Positions 418 to 62,830 of a DNA stretch of 64,000 nucleotides are shown one piece after another (position 1 is the first letter of the stretch; every line of letters starts with the position of its first letter). A program made the translations under genes and the position numbers. The notes beneath the pieces are model-generated. The model had not been told where the DNA came from and made no database searches. It was given only the letters and a program-made list of their open reading frames with translations. Source of the stretch: Candidatus Bathyarchaeota archaeon. GTDB taxonomy: Archaea; Thermoproteota; Bathyarchaeia; Bathyarchaeales; DTEX01. Where the stretch lies: contig JAGTQB010000002.1 of NCBI GenBank assembly GCA_018396995.1, forward strand, positions 71,495-135,494, given 5' to 3'.

Positions 418-517
418 ATATAAAATGGATACATCGCCTCTAACTGGGTTAACTCAGCAAATAAATATTTAAGGCAGATCTTAAAATAGTGAAAGAGAAT
501 TATTGAGGGGGACGAAA

Positions 518-973
518 GTGCCGACACCATTTGATGTGCCTGCATCGATACTGATTGAAAGGTTAGCGAGGTATCTGAAGGATAATGTTGACGTTATAGA
601 GCCGCCGGAATGGGCAGCCTACGTGAAGACTGGCGTACACGCTGAGCGCGGCCCCCAGAACCCAGACTGGTGGTACACTAGGTGTGCCTCACTTCTAAGG
701 AAGATTTACATCCTAGGACCTATTGGTGTTGAGCGTCTCAGAGCAAAGTACGGCGGTAGAAAGAGTAAGGGTACTAGGCCGAAGCATGCTGCTAAGGGCA
801 GTAGCGCAATAATTAGAAAGGCTCTCCAGCAACTTGAGAAAGCTGGTCTCGTTCAAACGATTAAGGGGAAGGGTAGAGTAATAACTCCTGAGGGGAGAAG
901 GTTGTTAGATTCCCTTTCAGCAGATATTAAAAGGGAGCTTGAAAAAGTTATCCCAGCGCTAAGTAAGTATTAG
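518..973 (+). CDS. rps19e: 30S ribosomal protein eS19
   Basis: ORF 503..973. PTPFDVPASILIERLARYLK...PDWWYTRCASLLRKIY is the S19e signature. The GTG at 518 follows GAGGGGG. Confidence 0.9.
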   Translation: MPTPFDVPASILIERLARYLKDNVDVIEPPEWAAYVKTGVHAERGPQNPDWWYTRCASLLRKIYILGPIGVERLRAKYGGRKSKGTRPKHAAKGSSAIIRKALQQLEKAGLVQTIKGKGRVITPEGRRLLDSLSADIKRELEKVIPALSKY

Positions 974-2491: not shown

Positions 2492-2685
2492 GCGAGATTA
2501 AGACCTATATGGTGATTTGCAGGATAGATAAGCCAAACCTAAAAACAGTATTCAGAAAGGAAATTAGAGCATTAAGGCCAGAGCACGCTATTGAGGAAAT
2601 CTATAAGATCATCGGAAGCAAACATAGGGCTAAACGTTTCCAAATAAAGATTATGAAGGTTGAGGAGATCGCTGGGGAAAAATAG
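2488..2685 (+). CDS. rplX: 50S ribosomal protein LX (eL20 family)
   Basis: 65 aa with the motif EEIYKIIGSKHRAKRFQIKIMKVEEI; 4-nt overlap with eif6. Confidence 0.8.
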   Translation: MSEIKTYMVICRIDKPNLKTVFRKEIRALRPEHAIEEIYKIIGSKHRAKRFQIKIMKVEEIAGEK

Positions 2686-5776: not shown

Positions 5777-6086
5777 CTACAAGCTCAAGTATATTTGAAT
5801 CGCCTGGATCCCTGATTGTGAGAGCGGAAACCACAAAGGGTTTTCCGCACGTAAAACCCAGATCTAAGCTAGAGCCGGGATATACGAGTAATGGAATATT
5901 GGATAATTTACAGTACTGTTCAATTTTTTCCCGTATATCTTGTGGGCAGTTTGATGCAATTACTATCATCTTGGCTCTCCCAGTTAGGGCGCTCTTTATA
6001 GCCGTATTTGAACCAAATAAAACTTTCCCACTTTTAATGGTTATGTTAAGAGCCTTATCTATTTCACTCTTACTAATTTTACTCAA
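5760..6086 (-). CDS. rpl30e: 50S ribosomal protein eL30
   Basis: L7Ae/L30e fold pattern KSGKVLFGSNTAIKS...MIVIASNCP; follows rpoA. Confidence 0.9.
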   Translation of the reverse strand: MSKISKSEIDKALNITIKSGKVLFGSNTAIKSALTGRAKMIVIASNCPQDIREKIEQYCKLSNIPLLVYPGSSLDLGFTCGKPFVVSALTIRDPGDSNILELVGGGNV

Positions 6087-9000
6087 CTTTTTCGCTCACC
6101 TCACCCATTAATGGGGCTGTCATATAAACTTCTACTAATCCAGTACCAACTGGTATTGTTTGGCCTACAATGACATTTTCAGTTACACCTTTAAGTGGGT
6201 CAATCTCGCCCCTAACCGCAGCCTCAACAATATTTGGGACTGTTATCTCGAAAGCCGCTCTAGCTAGAACGCTTGGCTTCTCACCACTAACCCCATGGCG
6301 GCCTATCTGCCTAACCGCGCCAGTTGCTGTCATCACATCTGCTACAAGCATTATATGTCTGATATCCACGTCAAGTCCCTGTTCCTGCAATACACCAATA
6401 GCCTCCTCAACGATAGCGTTTCTAGCAGCCTCTATACCTAATGTCTTCTCTATCTCATGAATATTATTTGTTGTTGTCCTCGTTGGGTCAACTCCAACAA
6501 CCTCAAGAACCTTAGATAGCTTTGATCCATCAGTCCTTATAATCCACTCACCCTTCTCCTCGGTCACATACACCCTCTTTATTCCGGGTATGCCCTTCAC
6601 ATGATAAGCCATAACCTTACTTATCAGCTTTTTTGTATCCATCTTCTTCTTAGGTTCAACAATCATCATTTTTCCCTCAAACTTTACTGAACAGTTTGAA
6701 ATGTTAACTGTCTCGCTCAAATACTCTAAGGTTATGCCCCGCTCTTTCATGCTCCGCTCACTTAACCTTATTATAAGACTACCAGTCTCCGGGTCTACAT
6801 AAGTCTCCTCAGAAATATCCTCAATTGTAGTATATAGGATTCTCTGGGCAACCTCAGTTGCCTTCTCCCGGCTCTTTCTATGCTCCTCATCGAGATAAAT
6901 TGTCATGATCGGAGTTGACGGCTCCCTTCTGGCATCAACTATCTCTATTAGGCGGGGTAGGCCTAACGTTACATTCTGCTCCCTAACGCCAGCATAGTGA
7001 AAGGTTCTAAGGGTCATTTGGGTACCTGGCTCGCCAATAGACTGAGCGGCTACAACGCCGACCGCTTCGCCGGGCTCAACAAGCGCCTTCTTATAGCGCT
7101 CTACAGCTAACTTAATGGCTAAATTAACTCCCTCTTTACTTAAGCCTGATGCTGAGAGCCCCTCGATGAGCTCCTGTGCGAGGAGCTGTGTGATTTCACT
7201 CCTAACACTATTCACCTGCTGCTCAATATACTCTTTAGGGGCTGGCTCTCCAGCTTCAACCATAAGCTTAACCTGCTCGATAAGCCTGCTCACGTTAACG
7301 GCCTTTCCATGGTCGCTCTTAGAGGGATCGACGCCATCTTCACCGTAAATGAATTGAATTATTTCGCCCAATGGGTTCCTTACGGTTCCATCATATTCTA
7401 CACGCAAGTGCTCTAATGCATTAATCAATCTTCTCTGCATGTATCCGCTCTGTTGTGTTCTTACGGCCGTATCCACCAGCCCCTCACGCCCACCCATAGC
7501 GTGGAAGAAGAACTCTATTGGGTCTAGACCGTCTCTATAAGAGGAGTATACAAAGCCTCTGGCCTTAGGTGATGGGTCTCCAAGATTAAAGTGTGGTAGG
7601 GCTCTCTCCATATATCCACGTATAATTCGCTTACCTCTAACAGACTGTTGCCCAAGCATGGCGGTCATCTGACCTATATTTAGAGTTGTCCCTCTGGCGC
7701 CAGTCTTAGTCATAACTATCCCCGAGTTTTCTATACTTAGATCTGCTTCAGCAACTTTTCCAGCCTTTTCACGCGCCTCGGCAAGTTCATTCATCACATA
7801 GAGTTCAAAGGAATCCTCAAGGGTTTGTCCAGGAAGTCTCTCTAAAGTTCCCTCATGTAACGCCCTGACTAGCAACTCTATCCTTTTCTCAGAATCCTTT
7901 ATTATTTGACGTATCTTTTTCTTGGCTTCAGCCGATAAGTCTAATTCGTCAAGAGAATACGTAAAACCGCGCATAGTTATAAATCTATTAAGGAGGCGGC
8001 AGATCTGATTAAGGAACTTCCTACCTGCTTCAGTTCCATAATCCTTTATTATCCTATGCAGAACGCTTTCAGATTTTTCTGCACCAATTGAGTTTTTATC
8101 GATTACACCCTTAACTAAAATACCATTCTTAATAACTACATAAGCATCGTAAGGACAATCCTCCTTCAAGCAAACCTCACAATTCCTGCAGATGCTTGCC
8201 TTAATGGCGTAGTTAAAGTCTTTTGGCAGGAATATACTGAATATTTGTTTTCCAGTCCATAGTGGCTCAGGCTCCTTGATTGCTGGCTCCGGTAGCGAAC
8301 CCTCATAACCAGCCGCGGCGAGTAATTCGCAGACTTCCTTCTTATTTAAAAGTGTATCTTTCTTAGTTAGGAGGTAGGATGCTGTAATGAAATCTCTTAT
8401 TGCGCCTATTATTGGCCCACCAAACCTTGGTGAGAGTATATGGTCCTGAACTTGCATTAAGAGGCGGGCCTCGGTCTGAGCCTCCTCACTCTGCGGGACG
8501 TGGAGATTCATCTCGTCCCCGTCAAAGTCCGCGTTGTATGGTGGGCAGACACATAGGTGGAGCCTGAAAGTTTTGCCGGGAAGCACCTTAACATAGTGAG
8601 CCATTATAGACATTCTATGGAGGGACGGTTGCCTATTAAATATGACTATATCCCCGTCTTGGAGATGCCTCTCAACTATAAAGCCAGGCTCAAGAGCGTC
8701 GGCAAGCTTACTTCTATCACTAACGAATTCAAGCCTGATGCGCTTTCCATCAGGCCTAATGATATATTGTGCCCCTGGATAAACGTTCGGCCCGTTTCTC
8801 ACGAACTGGCGGAGTCTCTCAATGTTCCACGGGGTAACCTTCTCGGGGACAGTTAGCCTCATTGCAATGCTTATTGGCACACCAACCTCATTTATGTCCA
8901 GGTTTGAGTCGGGGCTTATAACCGTACGCGCTGAAAAGTCAACCCTCTTGCCAGAAAGGTTCCCTCTAAATCTACCTTCCTTTCCCTTCAGGCGCTGAGA

Positions 9001-9912
9001 TAAAGTCTTTAGTGCTCTTCCAGAGCGGTGCTTTGATGGTGGTATACCAGAAGCCTCATTATTAAAATATGTTGTAACGTGGTATTCTAGGAGCTCCGCT
9101 AAGTCTTGTATTATTAATGTGGGTGCCCCAGCCTCAATATTCTCCTTAAGCCTCTGATTTATCCTTATTATATCGACAAGCTTATGTGTTAAGTCGTCTT
9201 CCGACCTTATTCCCGATTCAAGGGTTATTGATGGCCTAACATATACTGGTGGGACTGGCAGCACTTGTATAATCATCCACTCTGGGCGGGCATTTTTTGG
9301 ATCGAAGCCCAACAGCTCAAGATCCTCATCAGGAATCCTCTCAAACCTCTCCCTTATCATGCTTGCATTTAAGCGCTGTGACCCACCCTCCTCCGTATAC
9401 TCGTGAAAGATTATTGGCTTAGTAAATTCTATTTTATATTGCTTTGCACCGCACCATGGGCACTCCCGATTCCTTTTAGCCTCCTCAAAAACCCTATCAT
9501 AAAATGATGCTGGTACACTTCCAAGAATCTTTTTGAGCCTTTCCATCCTAGCCCTAAGAGACTTTACTGTTTTCTCTGGGAGGAGAATGCGCCCGCAGTT
9601 CCTACATATTGCCTGTAGGAGGTTATAAATTATTTCAGCAAATTCCACATGAATTACTGGTACAGCAAGTTCTATGTGGCCGAAGTGGCCTGGGCAGTTA
9701 ACCGAGGTGTTACCGCACGTTTTACACCTTTGCCCGGGTTCTAGGACGCCTAGACGGCTGTCCATTAGGCCGGAGGGGATTGCCGCGCCATCCTCATCAT
9801 AGGTGTCGGCCGTCTGAATCTCTGTGACTGACATCTTCCTTATTTCTTGAGGCGATAGAATACCGAACTTGATGTGATCTATTGCCTTATATATTTCTTC
9901 AGCTAACGCCAT
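6079..9912 (-). CDS. rpoA: DNA-directed RNA polymerase subunit A, unsplit (A' and A'' fused)
   Basis: Single 1277-aa ORF. It contains the N-terminal Zn motifs, the NADFDGDEM active site and, in the same frame, the A''-type trigger-loop region (VAAQSIGEPGTQMTLRTFHYAGV). Confidence 0.95.
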   Translation of the reverse strand: MALAEEIYKAIDHIKFGILSPQEIRKMSVTEIQTADTYDEDGAAIPSGLMDSRLGVLEPGQRCKTCGNTSVNCPGHFGHIELAVPVIHVEFAEIIYNLLQAICRNCGRILLPEKTVKSLRARMERLKKILGSVPASFYDRVFEEAKRNRECPWCGAKQYKIEFTKPIIFHEYTEEGGSQRLNASMIRERFERIPDEDLELLGFDPKNARPEWMIIQVLPVPPVYVRPSITLESGIRSEDDLTHKLVDIIRINQRLKENIEAGAPTLIIQDLAELLEYHVTTYFNNEASGIPPSKHRSGRALKTLSQRLKGKEGRFRGNLSGKRVDFSARTVISPDSNLDINEVGVPISIAMRLTVPEKVTPWNIERLRQFVRNGPNVYPGAQYIIRPDGKRIRLEFVSDRSKLADALEPGFIVERHLQDGDIVIFNRQPSLHRMSIMAHYVKVLPGKTFRLHLCVCPPYNADFDGDEMNLHVPQSEEAQTEARLLMQVQDHILSPRFGGPIIGAIRDFITASYLLTKKDTLLNKKEVCELLAAAGYEGSLPEPAIKEPEPLWTGKQIFSIFLPKDFNYAIKASICRNCEVCLKEDCPYDAYVVIKNGILVKGVIDKNSIGAEKSESVLHRIIKDYGTEAGRKFLNQICRLLNRFITMRGFTYSLDELDLSAEAKKKIRQIIKDSEKRIELLVRALHEGTLERLPGQTLEDSFELYVMNELAEAREKAGKVAEADLSIENSGIVMTKTGARGTTLNIGQMTAMLGQQSVRGKRIIRGYMERALPHFNLGDPSPKARGFVYSSYRDGLDPIEFFFHAMGGREGLVDTAVRTQQSGYMQRRLINALEHLRVEYDGTVRNPLGEIIQFIYGEDGVDPSKSDHGKAVNVSRLIEQVKLMVEAGEPAPKEYIEQQVNSVRSEITQLLAQELIEGLSASGLSKEGVNLAIKLAVERYKKALVEPGEAVGVVAAQSIGEPGTQMTLRTFHYAGVREQNVTLGLPRLIEIVDARREPSTPIMTIYLDEEHRKSREKATEVAQRILYTTIEDISEETYVDPETGSLIIRLSERSMKERGITLEYLSETVNISNCSVKFEGKMMIVEPKKKMDTKKLISKVMAYHVKGIPGIKRVYVTEEKGEWIIRTDGSKLSKVLEVVGVDPTRTTTNNIHEIEKTLGIEAARNAIVEEAIGVLQEQGLDVDIRHIMLVADVMTATGAVRQIGRHGVSGEKPSVLARAAFEITVPNIVEAAVRGEIDPLKGVTENVIVGQTIPVGTGLVEVYMTAPLMGEVSEKVE

Positions 9913-9913
9913 T

Positions 9914-12900
9914 CTAAGTCCTCTCCTTTAACCTAAGTCTTGGTGCAATACATAAGCTCATAAGCTCTTGAAGCAGGAGCTTAAATGCGTAGGAAACGGT
10001 TACTGGGGAGACTCTGGCCTTATCACCACATAGGTGACACATATACTTACGCTGTCTCGCATCATAATAGGCTATAAAACCACAGTTCTCACAGACATAA
10101 AGCGTATACTTGTCTGACTCCTCGAGGAGCCTATCCTGAAGGAGCATGGCAGCCCCATGGCCGATGAGACAATCTCTCTCCATCTCACCAAAGCGTAGCC
10201 CACCACCTCTGGCTCTCCCCTCAGTGGGCTGCCTAGTTAACATCTGAACTTGACCCCTAGCCCTTGCATGTATTTTATCAGAAACCATATGATGCAGCTT
10301 CTGGTAATAAACAATTCCAATAAAAATGTCCGCCACATACTTTTCTCCAGTTATGCCGTTATACAAGACTTCACGCCCAGTATAACTAAAACCTAGGCTA
10401 GTAAGCATGCGCTTTAGGATCTCGCCCCTTCTCCTACCCATAAATGGAGTTCCATCAACAGGCTCTCCTTTAAGGGCGGCTATTTTACCAGCCATGGACT
10501 CTAGGAATTGGCCTATGGTCATTCTTGACGGAATCGCATGTGGGTTAATTATTATGTCCGGGACAATTCCATCAGCCGAGAAGGGCATATCCTCCTGGGG
10601 GGCAATCATTCCTATAACGCCCTTCTGCCCATGTCTCGAAGCAAATTTGTCACCTATCTCTGGCACGCGCTCATCCCTAACCCTAACCTTAACAAGCCTA
10701 TTTTCCTCGTTAGTTTCAGTTATGAAGATTGCGTCTACTATGCCCTTCTCCGATGGCCTCATCTCAATAGATGAATCCCTCATCGTTGGACCACGCACCT
10801 CAAACTCCTTATATTCCTCTAAGAACCTTGGCGGGCTTATCCTACCAATTAACACGTCTCCACCCGAAACCTCTGCCTCAAGGCCAACTATTCCATCAGG
10901 CTCCAAGAGCCGGTAATACTGCTCTCCTCTATAACCCTTTATTCCGGCCTCGGGTACAGCTAGCTTATCCCTCAGTCCCCCAAGATATTGGCGGCACTCG
11001 GCTTCATAAAGCCTATAGAAGGTTGAGCGGAAGAGGCCGCGTTCTATTGAGGCCTTATTAATTATTATTGCATCCTCCATATTATATCCTTCATAGGAGA
11101 GAATGGCAACAATACAATTCTGTCCAGAGGGGCGTAGATCATAACCAATTATTTCCATTGGCTTAGTCCTAACAAGTGGCTTCTGTGGATAATGGAGTAG
11201 ATGCGCCCTCGAGTCAACCCTCAATAAGAAGTTAGATGCGTAGATCCCAAGAGCCTGCTTCGCCATCGCCGACTCATATGAGTTGCGCGGGGACTGGTTA
11301 TGCTCCGCGTAGGGTATTAATGAAGCACATATTCCAAGGATAGCGTAGGGTGTTAATTCGAGGTGAGTATGCTCTGGGGTCACATCTTCTGGATAAAGCG
11401 CTATATAGGCGTTTTCTTCCTCCTCGGCATCCAAATATTCTATTATGCCATTCTTTATTAAGTCGCTCCAAATCCACTCCTTAGAAATTATTTTCTCAAC
11501 ATGCTCCTTCCTGAGTCTAGGTACACCATTATCAACGATTATTAGAGGTCTGCGTATTCTACCCTCATCACAGTTAATATAAACCTCACGCCTAGGAACA
11601 CCGTACCTCTCATCAAAGTATGCAACATTAATCTCAGGAGAGATCTCTCCCCTCCGCCTAGCCTCCCTCAAGCTTTTAACGAGGGCTTCTGGATTACTAC
11701 AGTAACCTATTGGGGCGCCGTTTACGAAAACCTTCGCCCCAGTCCTCTTTAAATTCTCATTTGCTTCAAGGAGCGGGACAACACCCCGCCTATATAGCTC
11801 CCTCTTCACTTTATCTGAATCAACGCTAATTGAGAGCGAGGCTGAAAGGGCAAGGTTTTTAACAAGGCCGCAATTCGCGCCCTCCGGAGTCTCATTTGGG
11901 CAGAATCTACCCCAGTGGGTGGCGTGCAGATCCCTTGCCTCAAAGTTGGGCTGACCCCGACTTAATGGCGACTGAATCCTCCTAAGGTGACTATAAGTTG
12001 ATATCAAATTAGTTCTATCGAGGAGCTGCGTTATACCAACCCTGCCGCGCCCCCAGTTTCCAGTCGCAAGCGCATGCTGTAGCTTTTCAGTTATTATGCC
12101 GGGCCTAACTGCAATTGAGACATTTATTATGCGCTTCTTCGAACCCATCCTTTCAAGCTGATACTTGATGTCGCGGCAAAGGTTTCTAAAGGCAACTCGG
12201 AATAAGTCGGCGAGGAGGGGGCCTGCAAGCTTCAATCTCTTGTTCTTCACGTGATCCTTATCGTCTGGTTTACGCCTTCCCATCTTTAACTCGATTACCC
12301 TGGCAGCCATCTCGCCGAGGAGGTAAGCCTTCTCAATCCTTTTATCAGGGGTTCTCCCAATATGCGGCATAAAGATTCTGTCTAAAATTAACTCAGCTCT
12401 TTGCAATCTGTAGCTCTTAACCTGGCCCGGCGCAACTCTATTCCCAATATATAGCAAAGCATCCTCAACGGTTGTTACCTCGGCAGCCTCCTCAAAGGAG
12501 GGCTCCAGTTCACTTTGAACACTTTTGTCTAAGGAGACCGCCTCGGCTATATCCCTATCCGATTCAAGTCCAAGAGCCCTCATCAAAACAACAAATGGGA
12601 TCTCCGCTGGGACCCCAGGTATAGAAATGACCAGTGCACCACTCGGCTTCATGCGCATCTCAATTCTAGCCCTGAAGCCAACAGTCGTTGAGAATATCTT
12701 AGCTTTATAGACTGGTGTCGCCCCCTTAGTCTCTACATCAACAAGTATGCGGTTAGGAGCGAGGTCCTCAAGCGCCACAATAACCCTTTCAGACCCATTA
12801 ATTATAAAGTATCCCCCAGGGTCTAGTGGATCCTCACCCTGCCTAATGAGTTCCTCCTCAGATAAGCCGTATAGGTGACAATATTTAGACTTAAGCATTG

Positions 12901-13285
12901 TTGGCATATCACCTATATACACAATCTCCTTATCTATCTCTCTACCATCAACAACCTTTATCATTTCAATTGATATCGGCATTGCATACGTTAAATTCCT
13001 TAATCTAGCTTCCATTGGATAAATTTCGTGGCGCGTTCCATCAACCTCGGTAACATAGGGCCCGCATATAACTCCATTCTCAGTCTCACGTGCAATGAAG
13101 ACCTTGCCAAACCTAATTTTGTATGGCTTCTCAGGAACCTCTATCTCTATTTCACCAACCTCATTAACTATTTCCTGGAGTCCATGTTCTATAAACTCAT
13201 TATAAGAGTCAAGGTGCTGTCTAACAAGCCCCTTCTCCTCAATAAATGACTTAAATACAATGAAAGTATCTTCAGGACTAACCAA
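9914..13285 (-). CDS. rpoB: DNA-directed RNA polymerase subunit B (unsplit)
   Basis: 1123 aa with GDKFASRHGQKG and a C-terminal Zn ribbon (CENCG...CHLCG). TTG start preceded by GGAGGT. Confidence 0.95.
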   Translation of the reverse strand: MVSPEDTFIVFKSFIEEKGLVRQHLDSYNEFIEHGLQEIVNEVGEIEIEVPEKPYKIRFGKVFIARETENGVICGPYVTEVDGTRHEIYPMEARLRNLTYAMPISIEMIKVVDGREIDKEIVYIGDMPTMLKSKYCHLYGLSEEELIRQGEDPLDPGGYFIINGSERVIVALEDLAPNRILVDVETKGATPVYKAKIFSTTVGFRARIEMRMKPSGALVISIPGVPAEIPFVVLMRALGLESDRDIAEAVSLDKSVQSELEPSFEEAAEVTTVEDALLYIGNRVAPGQVKSYRLQRAELILDRIFMPHIGRTPDKRIEKAYLLGEMAARVIELKMGRRKPDDKDHVKNKRLKLAGPLLADLFRVAFRNLCRDIKYQLERMGSKKRIINVSIAVRPGIITEKLQHALATGNWGRGRVGITQLLDRTNLISTYSHLRRIQSPLSRGQPNFEARDLHATHWGRFCPNETPEGANCGLVKNLALSASLSISVDSDKVKRELYRRGVVPLLEANENLKRTGAKVFVNGAPIGYCSNPEALVKSLREARRRGEISPEINVAYFDERYGVPRREVYINCDEGRIRRPLIIVDNGVPRLRKEHVEKIISKEWIWSDLIKNGIIEYLDAEEEENAYIALYPEDVTPEHTHLELTPYAILGICASLIPYAEHNQSPRNSYESAMAKQALGIYASNFLLRVDSRAHLLHYPQKPLVRTKPMEIIGYDLRPSGQNCIVAILSYEGYNMEDAIIINKASIERGLFRSTFYRLYEAECRQYLGGLRDKLAVPEAGIKGYRGEQYYRLLEPDGIVGLEAEVSGGDVLIGRISPPRFLEEYKEFEVRGPTMRDSSIEMRPSEKGIVDAIFITETNEENRLVKVRVRDERVPEIGDKFASRHGQKGVIGMIAPQEDMPFSADGIVPDIIINPHAIPSRMTIGQFLESMAGKIAALKGEPVDGTPFMGRRRGEILKRMLTSLGFSYTGREVLYNGITGEKYVADIFIGIVYYQKLHHMVSDKIHARARGQVQMLTRQPTEGRARGGGLRFGEMERDCLIGHGAAMLLQDRLLEESDKYTLYVCENCGFIAYYDARQRKYMCHLCGDKARVSPVTVSYAFKLLLQELMSLCIAPRLRLKERT

Positions 13286-13430: not shown

Positions 13431-13440
13431 AAAAAAATAA
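13431..13440 (-). terminator. T-run terminator of the permuted tRNA transcript
   Basis: The minus strand reads TTATTTTTTT a few nt after the trailer arm. Oligo-T is the usual archaeal termination signal. Confidence 0.5.
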
Positions 13441-13447
13441 TTTCTCA

Positions 13448-13571
13448 GTCCGCACCCCAGCTCCGCAGGCCGACGTCATAATCCTGGCTAGACCACGGGT
13501 CCAGAGGGTTATGGCGGACCCGGCGGGATTTGAACCCGCGACCTCCGGCTCTCTGCGCTGAGGTGTCGGAC
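13448..13571 (-). tRNA. circularly permuted tRNA-Arg(GCG) gene: leader, 3' half (38-76 with CCA), 9-nt linker, 5' half (1-37), trailer
   Basis: Hand-folded. 3' half at 13550->13512, linker TAACCCTCT at 13511->13503, 5' half at 13502->13463. Acceptor GGACCCG/CGGGTCC, anticodon arm TCGGC-CTGCGGA-GCCGG, T arm GCGGG-TTCAAAT-CCCGC. Leader and trailer form a canonical BHB at 37/38. Confidence 0.8.
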
Positions 13572-13593: not shown

Positions 13594-13602
13594 TTAATTA
13601 AA
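13594..13602 (-). promoter_or_regulatory. TATA box for the permuted tRNA
   Basis: The minus strand reads TTTAATTAA, ending 22 nt upstream of the first leader nucleotide (13571). This is the expected archaeal TATA-to-TSS spacing. Confidence 0.5.
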
Positions 13603-13658
13603 TGTTTTTGGGAAGATGATATAGGGGCGCTGGCCCCTCAAGTGTAGTATACATTAAG

Positions 13659-55590: not shown

Positions 55591-56049
55591 CTATATATCA
55601 AGGATAAATTTCATAGTAACCTCGCCCGGTCTCTCATCAATTTCCATTCTGTGGTAAGTCACAGCCTTTATCCCAACCTTCTGCTTATGCCTCTCCGGAT
55701 CGAATTGTTCACCATATATCTTGGCTTTAAGCCTTAACTTTCCATTGATCCTCTCTATGCTCAGCACATTAAATCCCGAGTATAACATATTTTCAATTTC
55801 AAATTTCACTAGAAGACTTTCAAGCCAATTGTAGAGTAGGGACTCCATGTCATCCCCCTCAACCTCAATGGTGTCCTCACACTCATGTTTAACATCCGTT
55901 GTATCAGTCATTGTCTCAAACATTGCGAAGGCTGCGTTCTCAAAAGCCTCCTTCAAGTTCTTACCGTAAGCGGCTATATAGACATCAGCAGTGTGCTCCA
56001 GAAAATCAAACCGCTTCTCCCCAGCCACCGCGGCCACCCACCAATACAT
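55591..56049 (-). CDS. archease (RtcB tRNA-ligase activator)
   Basis: FDFLEHTADVYIAAYGKNLKEAFENAA...VKAVTYHRMEI. Confidence 0.9.
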   Translation of the reverse strand: MYWWVAAVAGEKRFDFLEHTADVYIAAYGKNLKEAFENAAFAMFETMTDTTDVKHECEDTIEVEGDDMESLLYNWLESLLVKFEIENMLYSGFNVLSIERINGKLRLKAKIYGEQFDPERHKQKVGIKAVTYHRMEIDERPGEVTMKFILDI

Positions 56050-58061: not shown

Positions 58062-58667
58062 TCAATCTTGCTGCAAGTTCATCTGCGAAAGTGTATAGTA
58101 GACTATTTCCCCCCTCCTATTAACTACGGCGAGTATAAGTGTCTTCTTTAAGTTTTGGGAGCGCATCAAGACTTGTGTTAGGTCTTCAATGGATAGAGCC
58201 ATCCCCTCATAAACTCCATAAACTATATAGTCCGCAGCATCCTTGCTATATTCGCCCCTTCCATACAGCCTAAAATCTACACCTAAGCCAAACCCCTCCC
58301 TAACAACATATCCCCTGCTCCTTAAATCACGGTAAATTAAATATTTAATCCAAGCATTTCTCTCAACAGATTTATATTTCTCCAGAAGATCCTGAAAACT
58401 TAGGTAGTTGCCAGTTTTTTCATCGAGAACCTTAATTACTCCCTTACTATGTAAGTACATTGCTTCATAGAACGTTAAGTACAATCCTTCATCTCTATGG
58501 GTGCCATAGCCTTTAGATTGCAGTCTTTCTGAGTCCTCAGGGGATTTGACTAGGACTCCATCATCTTTGAGGACGGCTTCGATAACTTTCCTGCCAGACT
58601 CCTCCTTCTCATTCTTAAGCAGAATATCACCACCCAAGCTACGTATCTCCTCCGGCGAGTGCACCAA
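58062..58667 (-). CDS. endA: tRNA-splicing endonuclease family subunit, catalytic His not conserved (probable structural subunit)
   Basis: YLIYRDLRSRGYVVREGFGLGVDFRLYGRG...LKKTLILAVVNRRGEIVYY aligns with M. jannaschii EndA as I remember it. The EHS(V/K)Y His position reads AADY. Confidence 0.8.
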   Translation of the reverse strand: MVHSPEEIRSLGGDILLKNEKEESGRKVIEAVLKDDGVLVKSPEDSERLQSKGYGTHRDEGLYLTFYEAMYLHSKGVIKVLDEKTGNYLSFQDLLEKYKSVERNAWIKYLIYRDLRSRGYVVREGFGLGVDFRLYGRGEYSKDAADYIVYGVYEGMALSIEDLTQVLMRSQNLKKTLILAVVNRRGEIVYYTLSQMNLQQD

Positions 58668-62730: not shown

Positions 62731-62830
62731 GGACCCGTGGCCTAGCCAGGATTAAGGCACCGAGCCATAAAAGTGGCGTGTATGCCTCCGGAGCCGGGGA
62801 TCCCGGGTTCAAATCCCGGCGGGTCCGCCA
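62731..62830 (+). tRNA. tRNA-Arg(CCG) with a 21-nt intron at non-canonical position 29/30 (intron 62763..62783), CCA encoded
   Basis: Hand-folded. The spliced anticodon arm CCG|GC-CTCCGGA-GCCGG pairs only after intron removal. The junctions sit in 3-nt bulges around the 4-bp helix GCAC/GTGT, with intron hairpin GCCA(T)-AAAA-(G)TGGC. Confidence 0.8.

Follow-up and report, generated by a model that had tools for sequence, protein, structure and literature searches.

The window described here is the whole stretch of DNA that was analyzed, 64,000 nucleotides (64 kb) of contig JAGTQB010000002.1 (assembly GCA_018396995.1) from a Candidatus Bathyarchaeota archaeon, uncultured and from a hot spring, and the element in question is a short minus-strand locus upstream of rpoB. 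As judged from its sequence and predicted structure, this locus is very probably a functional, circularly permuted tRNA-Arg(GCG) gene of the Bathyarchaeia, of the 37/38 type (type II in Soma's classification). Read on the minus strand from 13571 to 13448, it consists in order of a leader, tRNA positions 38-76 with the CCA end, a 9-nucleotide (nt) linker, tRNA positions 1-37 and a trailer. The leader GTCCGACACCTCAGCGCAGAG (13551-13571), delimited by the minimum free energy (MFE) fold and by covariation, is made up of an outer-helix strand, GTCCGACACCTCAGC, a central-helix strand, GCAG, and the bulge bases AG, which are completed to a 3-nt bulge by A38 as the third base. The 3' half AGCCGGAGGTCGCGGGTTCAAATCCCGCCGGGTCCGCCA (A38-A76, 13512-13550) holds the 3' strand of the anticodon stem, the variable loop, the T arm, the 3' strand of the acceptor stem, G73 and the encoded CCA. 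The linker TAACCCTCT (13503-13511), read directly from the sequence, lies between A76 and G1, and is followed by the 5' half GGACCCGTGGTCTAGCCAGGATTATGACGTCGGCCTGCGG (G1-G37, 13463-13502), which holds the 5' strand of the acceptor stem, the D arm, the 5' strand of the anticodon stem and the loop CUGCGG with the anticodon GCG at 13466-13464, and which is conserved in all variants of the gene. The boundaries of both halves come from ARAGORN on the rejoined sequence. The trailer AGCTGGGGTGCGGAC (13448-13462) was again delimited by the MFE fold and covariation; it starts with the A that completes the 3-nt bulge G36-G37-A, and the remainder, GCTGGGGTGCGGAC, pairs with the leader. Both halves are on the same strand, with no space between them for a second promoter, and form one transcription unit.

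When the two halves are rejoined, the resulting 79-mer is called tRNA-Arg(gcg) by ARAGORN, CCA included. Its four stems are all formed, namely the acceptor stem (7 bp), the D stem, the anticodon stem (5 bp, with a G-U at 27:43) and the T stem (5 bp), with a U-U apposition at 13:22, and, with numbering assigned by hand, the universal bases U8, A14, G18, G19, A20, A21, U33, G53, U54, U55, C56, A58 and C61 are all present. The initial annotation, made from the sequence alone, had described two halves in permuted order that rejoin to a canonical tRNA-Arg(GCG) with a single G-U in the anticodon stem, in a region that standard finders would leave blank. A re-reading of the minus strand from 13720 to 13300 reproduced each of its coordinates and sequences, and the rejoining and the blank both hold as well: on the window as encoded, ARAGORN finds two tRNAs, neither of them at 13448-13571, and Rfam at gathering thresholds finds a tRNA-Asp only. 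Nor does the locus look like a product of chance: it is one of only three non-coding G+C-rich islands in the 64 kb, and its T-arm motif GGTTCAAATCC is one of three tRNA-type copies there, besides two looser matches inside open reading frames (ORFs). The identity of the gene as a permuted tRNA-Arg(GCG) can be assigned with high confidence.

Precursor fold, conservation and expression signals

The MFE structure given by RNAfold for 13571-13448 has a free energy of -63.7 kcal/mol, against a mean of -49.5 for shuffled sequences (z = -3.64), and none of 200 shuffles was as stable. In this structure the leader and the trailer form an outer helix of 14 bp with one bulged A, and inward from it follow the 3-nt bulge A-G-A38, a 4-bp central helix GCAG/CUGC in which the leader's GCAG pairs with the loop bases C32-C35, a 3-nt bulge on the opposite strand, G36-G37-A, and the anticodon stem. 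The result is a strict hBHBh' motif, the kind of substrate that archaeal splicing endonucleases cut, and the two predicted scissile bonds lie at 37/38. The bulge-helix-bulge (BHB) with cuts at 37/38 that had been proposed for the leader and trailer is therefore recovered in the MFE fold, and its helix is backed by covariation across species, as described below.

The gene is not confined to one assembly or one species. RpoB of the source (9914-13285, minus strand) is identical to the protein on 18 public contigs, including five NCBI assemblies of metagenome-assembled genomes (MAGs), GCA_038842655.1 among them, and one ENA assembly. Six independent assemblies of this species agree throughout the intergenic region upstream of rpoB that contains the tRNA locus, one T in a T-run excepted, which excludes an assembly artefact. 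MAGs that carry the locus include GCA_038842655.1, GCA_038860385.1 and GCA_038853925.1. One genome per prokaryotic species was scanned with a pattern composed of the T arm, the 3' acceptor strand, at most 31 nt and the 5' acceptor strand, which gave 57 loci, 48 of them bacterial and nine in MAGs labelled Bathyarchaeota or Bathyarchaeia; all nine archaeal loci carry the full permuted tRNA-Arg(GCG). These MAGs belong to hot-spring series (ZZQ, JZ) and to marine sediment series (Guaymas B71_G16, AUK193, M10). The source species itself is absent from the matches in the genome collection, though five NCBI MAGs carry the exact RpoB and locus, and its species representative may lack the region or be outside the collection. 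A second scan, of a metagenome collection, was built on the central-helix strand together with the bulge and the first bases of the 3' half, and made no use of the acceptor stem; it gave 24 loci, namely 19 permuted genes, two colinear tRNA-Arg(GCG) genes, one intron-containing tRNA-His gene and two others. In total there are 20 distinct permuted variants, with an almost invariant tRNA body, and the gene is present in at least 10 species-level Bathyarchaeia genomes. In every one of the 20 folds the leader-trailer helix closes onto the anticodon stem. ARAGORN, run on 13 related and look-alike loci, reports nothing at the permuted ones, so that it is unusable for surveying them.

In eight variants the permuted gene lies directly upstream of rpoB, and their RpoB proteins are 86-92% identical to that of the source, while a marine group keeps the permuted gene amid different neighbours, not near rpoB; the permutation therefore predates the rearrangement of the neighbourhood. 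The suggestion in the initial annotation that the gene might mark a new lineage is borne out by these relatives, which share the gene and the 86-92% identical RpoB and are labelled Candidatus Bathyarchaeia or Bathyarchaeota; NCBI taxonomy places the Bathyarchaeia under the kingdom Thermoproteati. A colinear tRNA-Arg(GCG) gene was found neither within the 64-kb window nor in approximately 745 kb of sequence around related loci.

An alignment of 16 distinct sequences in a fixed register shows how the flanks are maintained. The structure as defined is paired at 98.1% and the eight innermost leader-trailer pairs at 98.4%; four of these eight have changed on both sides (GC/AU, CG/UA and AU/GC), and three more have changed on one side by way of G-U. 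When the 3' partners were slid by 1-3 columns as a control, pairing of the whole structure fell to 34-50% and nearly all of the double changes were gone. The T-stem pair 50:64 also covaries, taking three Watson-Crick forms (CG, UA and GC), and an earlier alignment of ten species led to the same result. The central helix varies at one pair only, A-U or G-U, apart from one variant (L019). The linker, on the other hand, ranges from 8 to 32 nt among the variants and is unconserved in sequence, except that a T (base 13503 in the source) precedes G1 in all 20 variants, perhaps because RNase P prefers a U in position -1. Flanks that appear to be selected for pairing rather than for sequence, together with a linker that would be discarded, are the pattern of a functional RNA. 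The variants L071 (5559-5690, plus strand) and L074/L075 have linkers of 31 and 32 nt, beyond the reach of the first pattern, and the linker of L071 contains a hairpin of its own, GGCCT-AAATGTTTC-AGGCC. These long-linker variants also adjoin rpoB, and linker length has therefore changed within the rpoB-adjacent lineage.

The locus appears to carry its own expression signals, in agreement with the initial annotation, which had pointed to an upstream box and a downstream T-run. A putative archaeal promoter, consisting of an A-rich stretch resembling a B recognition element (BRE) and the TATA-like box CAAAAACATTTAATTAA, was located at 13594-13610 (minus strand) from the sequence and the archaeal promoter consensus, on which its assumed function depends; the box TTTAATTAA ends 22 nt before the first base of the leader. 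In every variant with upstream sequence, an A-rich stretch and a TTTA(A/T) box begin 27-41 nt before the first paired base of the leader, the right distance for a promoter, and with this spacing archaeal transcription would begin at the helix or shortly before it. Downstream, a T-rich stretch, TTATTTTTTT (13431-13440, minus strand, read from the sequence), includes a T7 run at 13437-13431 that starts 10 nt past the trailer, and it is likely to serve as the transcription stop. With regard to the need for the product, CGU and CGC codons occur 147 times in the long ORFs of the window, 21 times in RpoB. Archaea decode these codons with a tRNA-Arg carrying G34, and a tRNA-Arg(GCG) is therefore needed.

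Several observations weigh against this interpretation. Half of the variants contain a G-U pair in the 4-bp central helix, L019 has an A-C mismatch there, and for the G-U variants RNAfold favours a slightly shifted register. The acceptor and anticodon stems are invariant in the alignment, in part because the search patterns required them. T-runs of at least four soon after the trailer occur in several variants and not in every one, and the score of the rejoined sequence is that of ARAGORN alone.

Proposed maturation of the precursor and the processing machinery

The maturation of such a transcript can be envisaged as follows. One promoter would give a transcript of approximately 125-140 nt with the leader, the 3' half with its CCA, the 9-nt linker, the 5' half and the trailer. 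The leader would pair with the trailer and with bases 32-35 of the anticodon loop and would, together with the anticodon stem, form the strict hBHBh' motif. The archaeal splicing endonuclease (EndA) would then cleave the two 3-nt bulges, one after G37 and one before A38, and an RtcB-type ligase with archease would join G37 to A38, most likely giving an 88-nt circle of the tRNA and the linker. RNase P would open the circle on the 5' side of G1, the 9-nt tail after the encoded CCA would be trimmed, and the mature product would read CGU and CGC codons.

The placing of the circle before the removal of the linker is modelled on Cyanidioschyzon merolae and is probably correct for the Bathyarchaeia gene. 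In the reverse order, RNase P and 3' trimming would first release two paired halves, and BHB cleavage and ligation would then proceed as in a split tRNA, with no circle at all. Such a course is rather unlikely, but it is not without arguments: the 2014 review calls the passage of archaeal permuted precursors through a circle unclear and unexamined for Archaea (PMC3978253), split tRNAs with the same 37/38 BHB do exist in Archaea (PMC3218864), and in the predicted structure RNase P might already recognise the acceptor stem, with the linker as its loop, while the precursor is still linear. Opposed to these are the circular intermediates that PMC3978253 cites as shown for type II permuted tRNAs of algae, and the BHB, which is fully formed and accessible in the predicted fold of the precursor. 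Neither order is forced by anything in the sequence.

Two genes for the proposed processing are encoded in the same window. An ORF at 58062-58667 (minus strand) encodes a catalytic-type EndA subunit of 201 amino acids with the Pfam domains tRNA_int_endo_N and tRNA_int_endo; it scores 83.9 bits against the cutoff of 59.6 of the NCBIfam endA equivalog, and among solved structures the enzymes of M. kandleri and M. jannaschii (5x89 and 1a79) come closest to it. An ORF at 55591-56049 (minus strand) encodes an archease of 152 amino acids (Pfam Archease, E = 7.7e-47; NCBIfam PRK00407, 157 bits). Archease is the activator of the 3'-phosphate RNA ligase RtcB. The EndA and archease genes indicate a splicing endonuclease/ligase system in the organism; RtcB and RNase P were not seen in the 64-kb window, and a Pfam survey of the window showed no second ORF with an endonuclease domain. 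The two genes are 2 kb apart and share the window with two disrupted tRNA-Arg genes.

The second of these disrupted genes lies at 62732-62830 (plus strand), where ARAGORN mislabels it as tRNA-Tyr(ata) and Rfam misses it at the gathering threshold. If 21 nt (about 62762-62782) are taken out of the anticodon stem, on its 5' strand near position 29/30, what remains is a clean 79-nt tRNA-Arg(CCG) with encoded CCA. The spliced tRNA-Arg(CCG) and the rejoined tRNA-Arg(GCG) are identical at 69 of 79 positions, with the same acceptor stem and D loop. With a putative non-canonical intron in this tRNA-Arg(CCG), BHB-type splicing would therefore be routine in the organism.

As for the neighbouring genes, the permuted tRNA gene directly precedes rpoB, with 162 nt from the trailer to the rpoB start, and there is therefore no room for rpoH between them. 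RNA polymerase subunit A (6079-9912, minus strand) is a single polypeptide of 1277 amino acids in which the NCBIfam equivalogs place A' at 6-882 and A'' at 908-1264. In most Archaea, A' and A'' are two genes.

Look-alike RNAs and the possible origin of the permutation

A tRNA-like shape does not in itself make a tRNA, and the locus might instead encode a non-coding RNA that never matures, an archaeal counterpart of bacterial YrlA, a protein scaffold in which a long terminal stem carries a tRNA mimic whose acceptor stem is closed. The resemblance is considerable: the T arm, the acceptor-like stem closed by a loop, the D arm and the long stem in which the 5' and 3' ends pair are common to both, the Rfam model of YrlA aligns with the locus over its full length (21.7 bits, E = 0.019), and the paper on the YrlA structure remarks on a resemblance to circularly permuted tRNAs (10.1101/312249). 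Moreover, the first scan pattern also drew the 48 bacterial loci, one of which, Mesorhizobium L008 (5580-5710), reaches the YrlA gathering score with 74.7 bits. The score of the locus itself, however, is far under the gathering score of 69, which leaves it outside RF02553, and YrlA is bacterial, linked to Ro60 and without an anticodon loop or BHB, so that the likeness is one of shape and not of membership. The terminal stem of the Bathyarchaeia RNA is a strict BHB, its two 3-nt bulges separated by 4 bp and placed exactly at 37/38, and is kept as such in 20 variants; the anticodon loop with GCG, the encoded CCA and the universal tRNA bases are all conserved; a Pfam scan of the window's ORFs other than rpoB and rpoA showed no Ro60/TROVE protein; and the genome needs a CGY-reading tRNA. 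A scaffold function of this kind is thus very improbable.

The 48 bacterial look-alikes are mostly from Rhizobium, Mesorhizobium and other Alphaproteobacteria and consist of a T arm, CGGGTCC(G)CCA, a spacer of 4-10 nt and GGACCCGTAGCTCAGCGG; they were picked up because the first pattern fixed the acceptor stem. Besides L008, five other bacterial loci were tested and reach no Rfam gathering score. Many of the look-alikes may be unannotated YrlA-like RNAs, often beside repeated GACGAATGCCG modules. Permuted alphaproteobacterial tmRNA was considered for them and rejected on the Rfam results, which give YrlA for L008 and nothing at gathering score for the five. The archaeal locus was likewise rejected as a permuted tmRNA (RF04321): it reaches 18.8 bits against 47, over the T arm and acceptor part only, and ARAGORN finds no tmRNA there. 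A permissive Rfam search of the locus gave sub-threshold partial matches (YrlA, tmRNA_permuted, tmRNA and plastid UTR motifs with tRNA-like arms), none of which was accepted as its family.

The origin of the permutation may be sought in a tandem duplication. The trailers begin with AGC(C/T)GG(G/A)G and resemble the start of the 3' half, AGCCGGAG, with 7.0 identities of 12 against 3.8 in column-permuted controls (p about 0.01); for the leader, compared in the same way with the last bases of the 5' half, the resemblance does not reach significance (6.3 of 16 against 4.9, p = 0.16). These comparisons are suggestive of, and only suggestive of, a tandem tRNA copy whose duplicated anticodon arm gave rise to the outer helix and the BHB. 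The trailer resemblance could also be taken as the mark of a decaying, functionless remnant of such a duplication, or the locus as an assembly artefact, a possibility close to negligible in view of six independent assemblies with the identical locus, 20 variants from different species and sites in which the tRNA body is intact despite divergent linkers and flanks, compensatory changes that keep the leader-trailer helix, a conserved promoter box, and a 4-bp/3-nt BHB geometry that a dead copy would not retain.

The two colinear tRNA-Arg(GCG) genes from the second scan, L072 (about 460-590, minus strand) and L082 (about 2570-2660, plus strand), have canonical 37/38 introns of 22 and 14 nt, and the tRNA-His gene (L066, about 12170-12260, minus strand) is a colinear tRNA-His(GUG) with an intron of 16 nt. 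L072 and L082 share with the permuted gene the isoacceptor, the cleavage positions and the BHB logic, and their spliced products are identical to the rejoined tRNA at 62 of 79 and 61 of 81 aligned positions, respectively; they differ from it in their normal gene order and in their acceptor stems. In the hairpin formed by the canonical intron of L072, the two arms, joined by a loop, are the counterparts of the trailer and the leader of the permuted gene, which fits the textbook scheme of a tandem duplication read across its junction.

Relation to known tRNA genes and biological meaning

The only published archaeal permuted tRNAs are tRNA-iMet and tRNA-Tyr of Thermofilum pendens, which have the junction at 59/60, an encoded CCA and linkers of 7 and 1 nt (Chan, Cozen and Lowe; PMC3218864), and the initial annotation was accurate on their being the only ones; in view of the 59/60 junction, the 37/38 case is therefore more distinct than it had said. 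The Bathyarchaeia gene resembles the T. pendens genes in being archaeal, in the order of the 3' part upstream of the 5' part in one transcript, in the single upstream promoter, in the BHB at the junction and in the encoded CCA, and the intervening sequence is short in both (9 nt as compared with 7 and 1 nt). In T. pendens, however, the junction is in the T loop at 59/60 (type IV) and the upstream piece is of only 17 nt, whereas the Bathyarchaeia gene is divided at 37/38 into true halves, with the T arm intact in the upstream half, and so falls outside type IV. In addition, the T. pendens permuted genes carry a canonical intron, which the Bathyarchaeia gene does not, and they are known for other isoacceptors from one species of the Thermoproteales, as opposed to 20 variants in at least 10 species-level genomes.

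Type II permutation (37/38) is described from algae and a nucleomorph only, and type IV from Archaea, according to the review of Soma in 2014; the type II hosts are Cyanidioschyzon merolae, Ostreococcus, Micromonas and the nucleomorph of Bigelowiella natans (PMC3978253). The algal type II genes and the Bathyarchaeia gene have in common the position of the junction, the BHB formed by leader and trailer, a short linker (5-64 nt in algae) and the expected pathway of endonuclease, ligase and circle, followed by RNase P and 3' processing. The algal genes, however, are eukaryotic, do not encode CCA and are transcribed by RNA polymerase III from internal promoters, while the Bathyarchaeia gene has an upstream promoter of the BRE/TATA type. 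The algal isoacceptors are Ser, iMet, Leu, Cys, Gly and others, and the table consulted in PMC3978253 contains no Arg(GCG) at 37/38. Split tRNAs joined at 37/38 are known from Nanoarchaeum equitans (Glu, His and iMet) and, for Asp, from Aeropyrum pernix and Thermosphaera aggregans (PMC3218864). They also break at 37/38, and their complementary flanks build a BHB for the same endonuclease and ligase; the split halves, however, are separate transcripts, each with its own promoter, whereas the Bathyarchaeia halves are on one transcript, reversed and 9 nt apart, so that ligation either closes a circle or needs a cut in the linker.

Later reviews and methods papers up to 2025 mention one archaeal species or cite only Chan 2011. 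Searches of the literature for permuted tRNAs in Bathyarchaeota or Bathyarchaeia, and for recent reports of split or permuted tRNAs from MAGs, returned nothing relevant, with subscription journals mostly outside the coverage and a prior description possible. Within the literature covered, the gene appears to be without precedent in four respects: as an archaeal type II permuted tRNA, as a permuted tRNA-Arg(GCG), as a permuted tRNA from an archaeon other than Thermofilum and as one that is conserved across many species. Mechanistically, the finding is anticipated by the algal and Thermofilum cases.

The finding extends permutation at the anticodon loop, hitherto known from algae only, to a different and ecologically widespread archaeal group, and the many diverged copies allow the leader-trailer structure to rest on covariation and not on a single sequence. 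These copies also constitute a natural series, with linkers of 8-32 nt and covarying helices, that can be used to ask how substrates of splicing endonucleases arise and whether such rearrangements last, and the presence of the substrate and the endonuclease gene in one window gives access to the system in vitro. If the origin from a duplicated anticodon arm is true, it would be a concrete route for the de novo formation of a splice site. For the genomes themselves, tRNA-Arg(GCG) will look missing from these MAGs, which affects inferences on tRNA complement, completeness and codon reading. Finally, the balance tips slightly towards the view that a whole clade of hot-spring and marine hydrothermal Bathyarchaeia obtains its tRNA-Arg(GCG) from the permuted gene alone, that the permutation is ancient and stably inherited, and that a cut-and-rejoin step, probably by way of a circular tRNA, is obligatory in these organisms for the reading of CGU and CGC codons.

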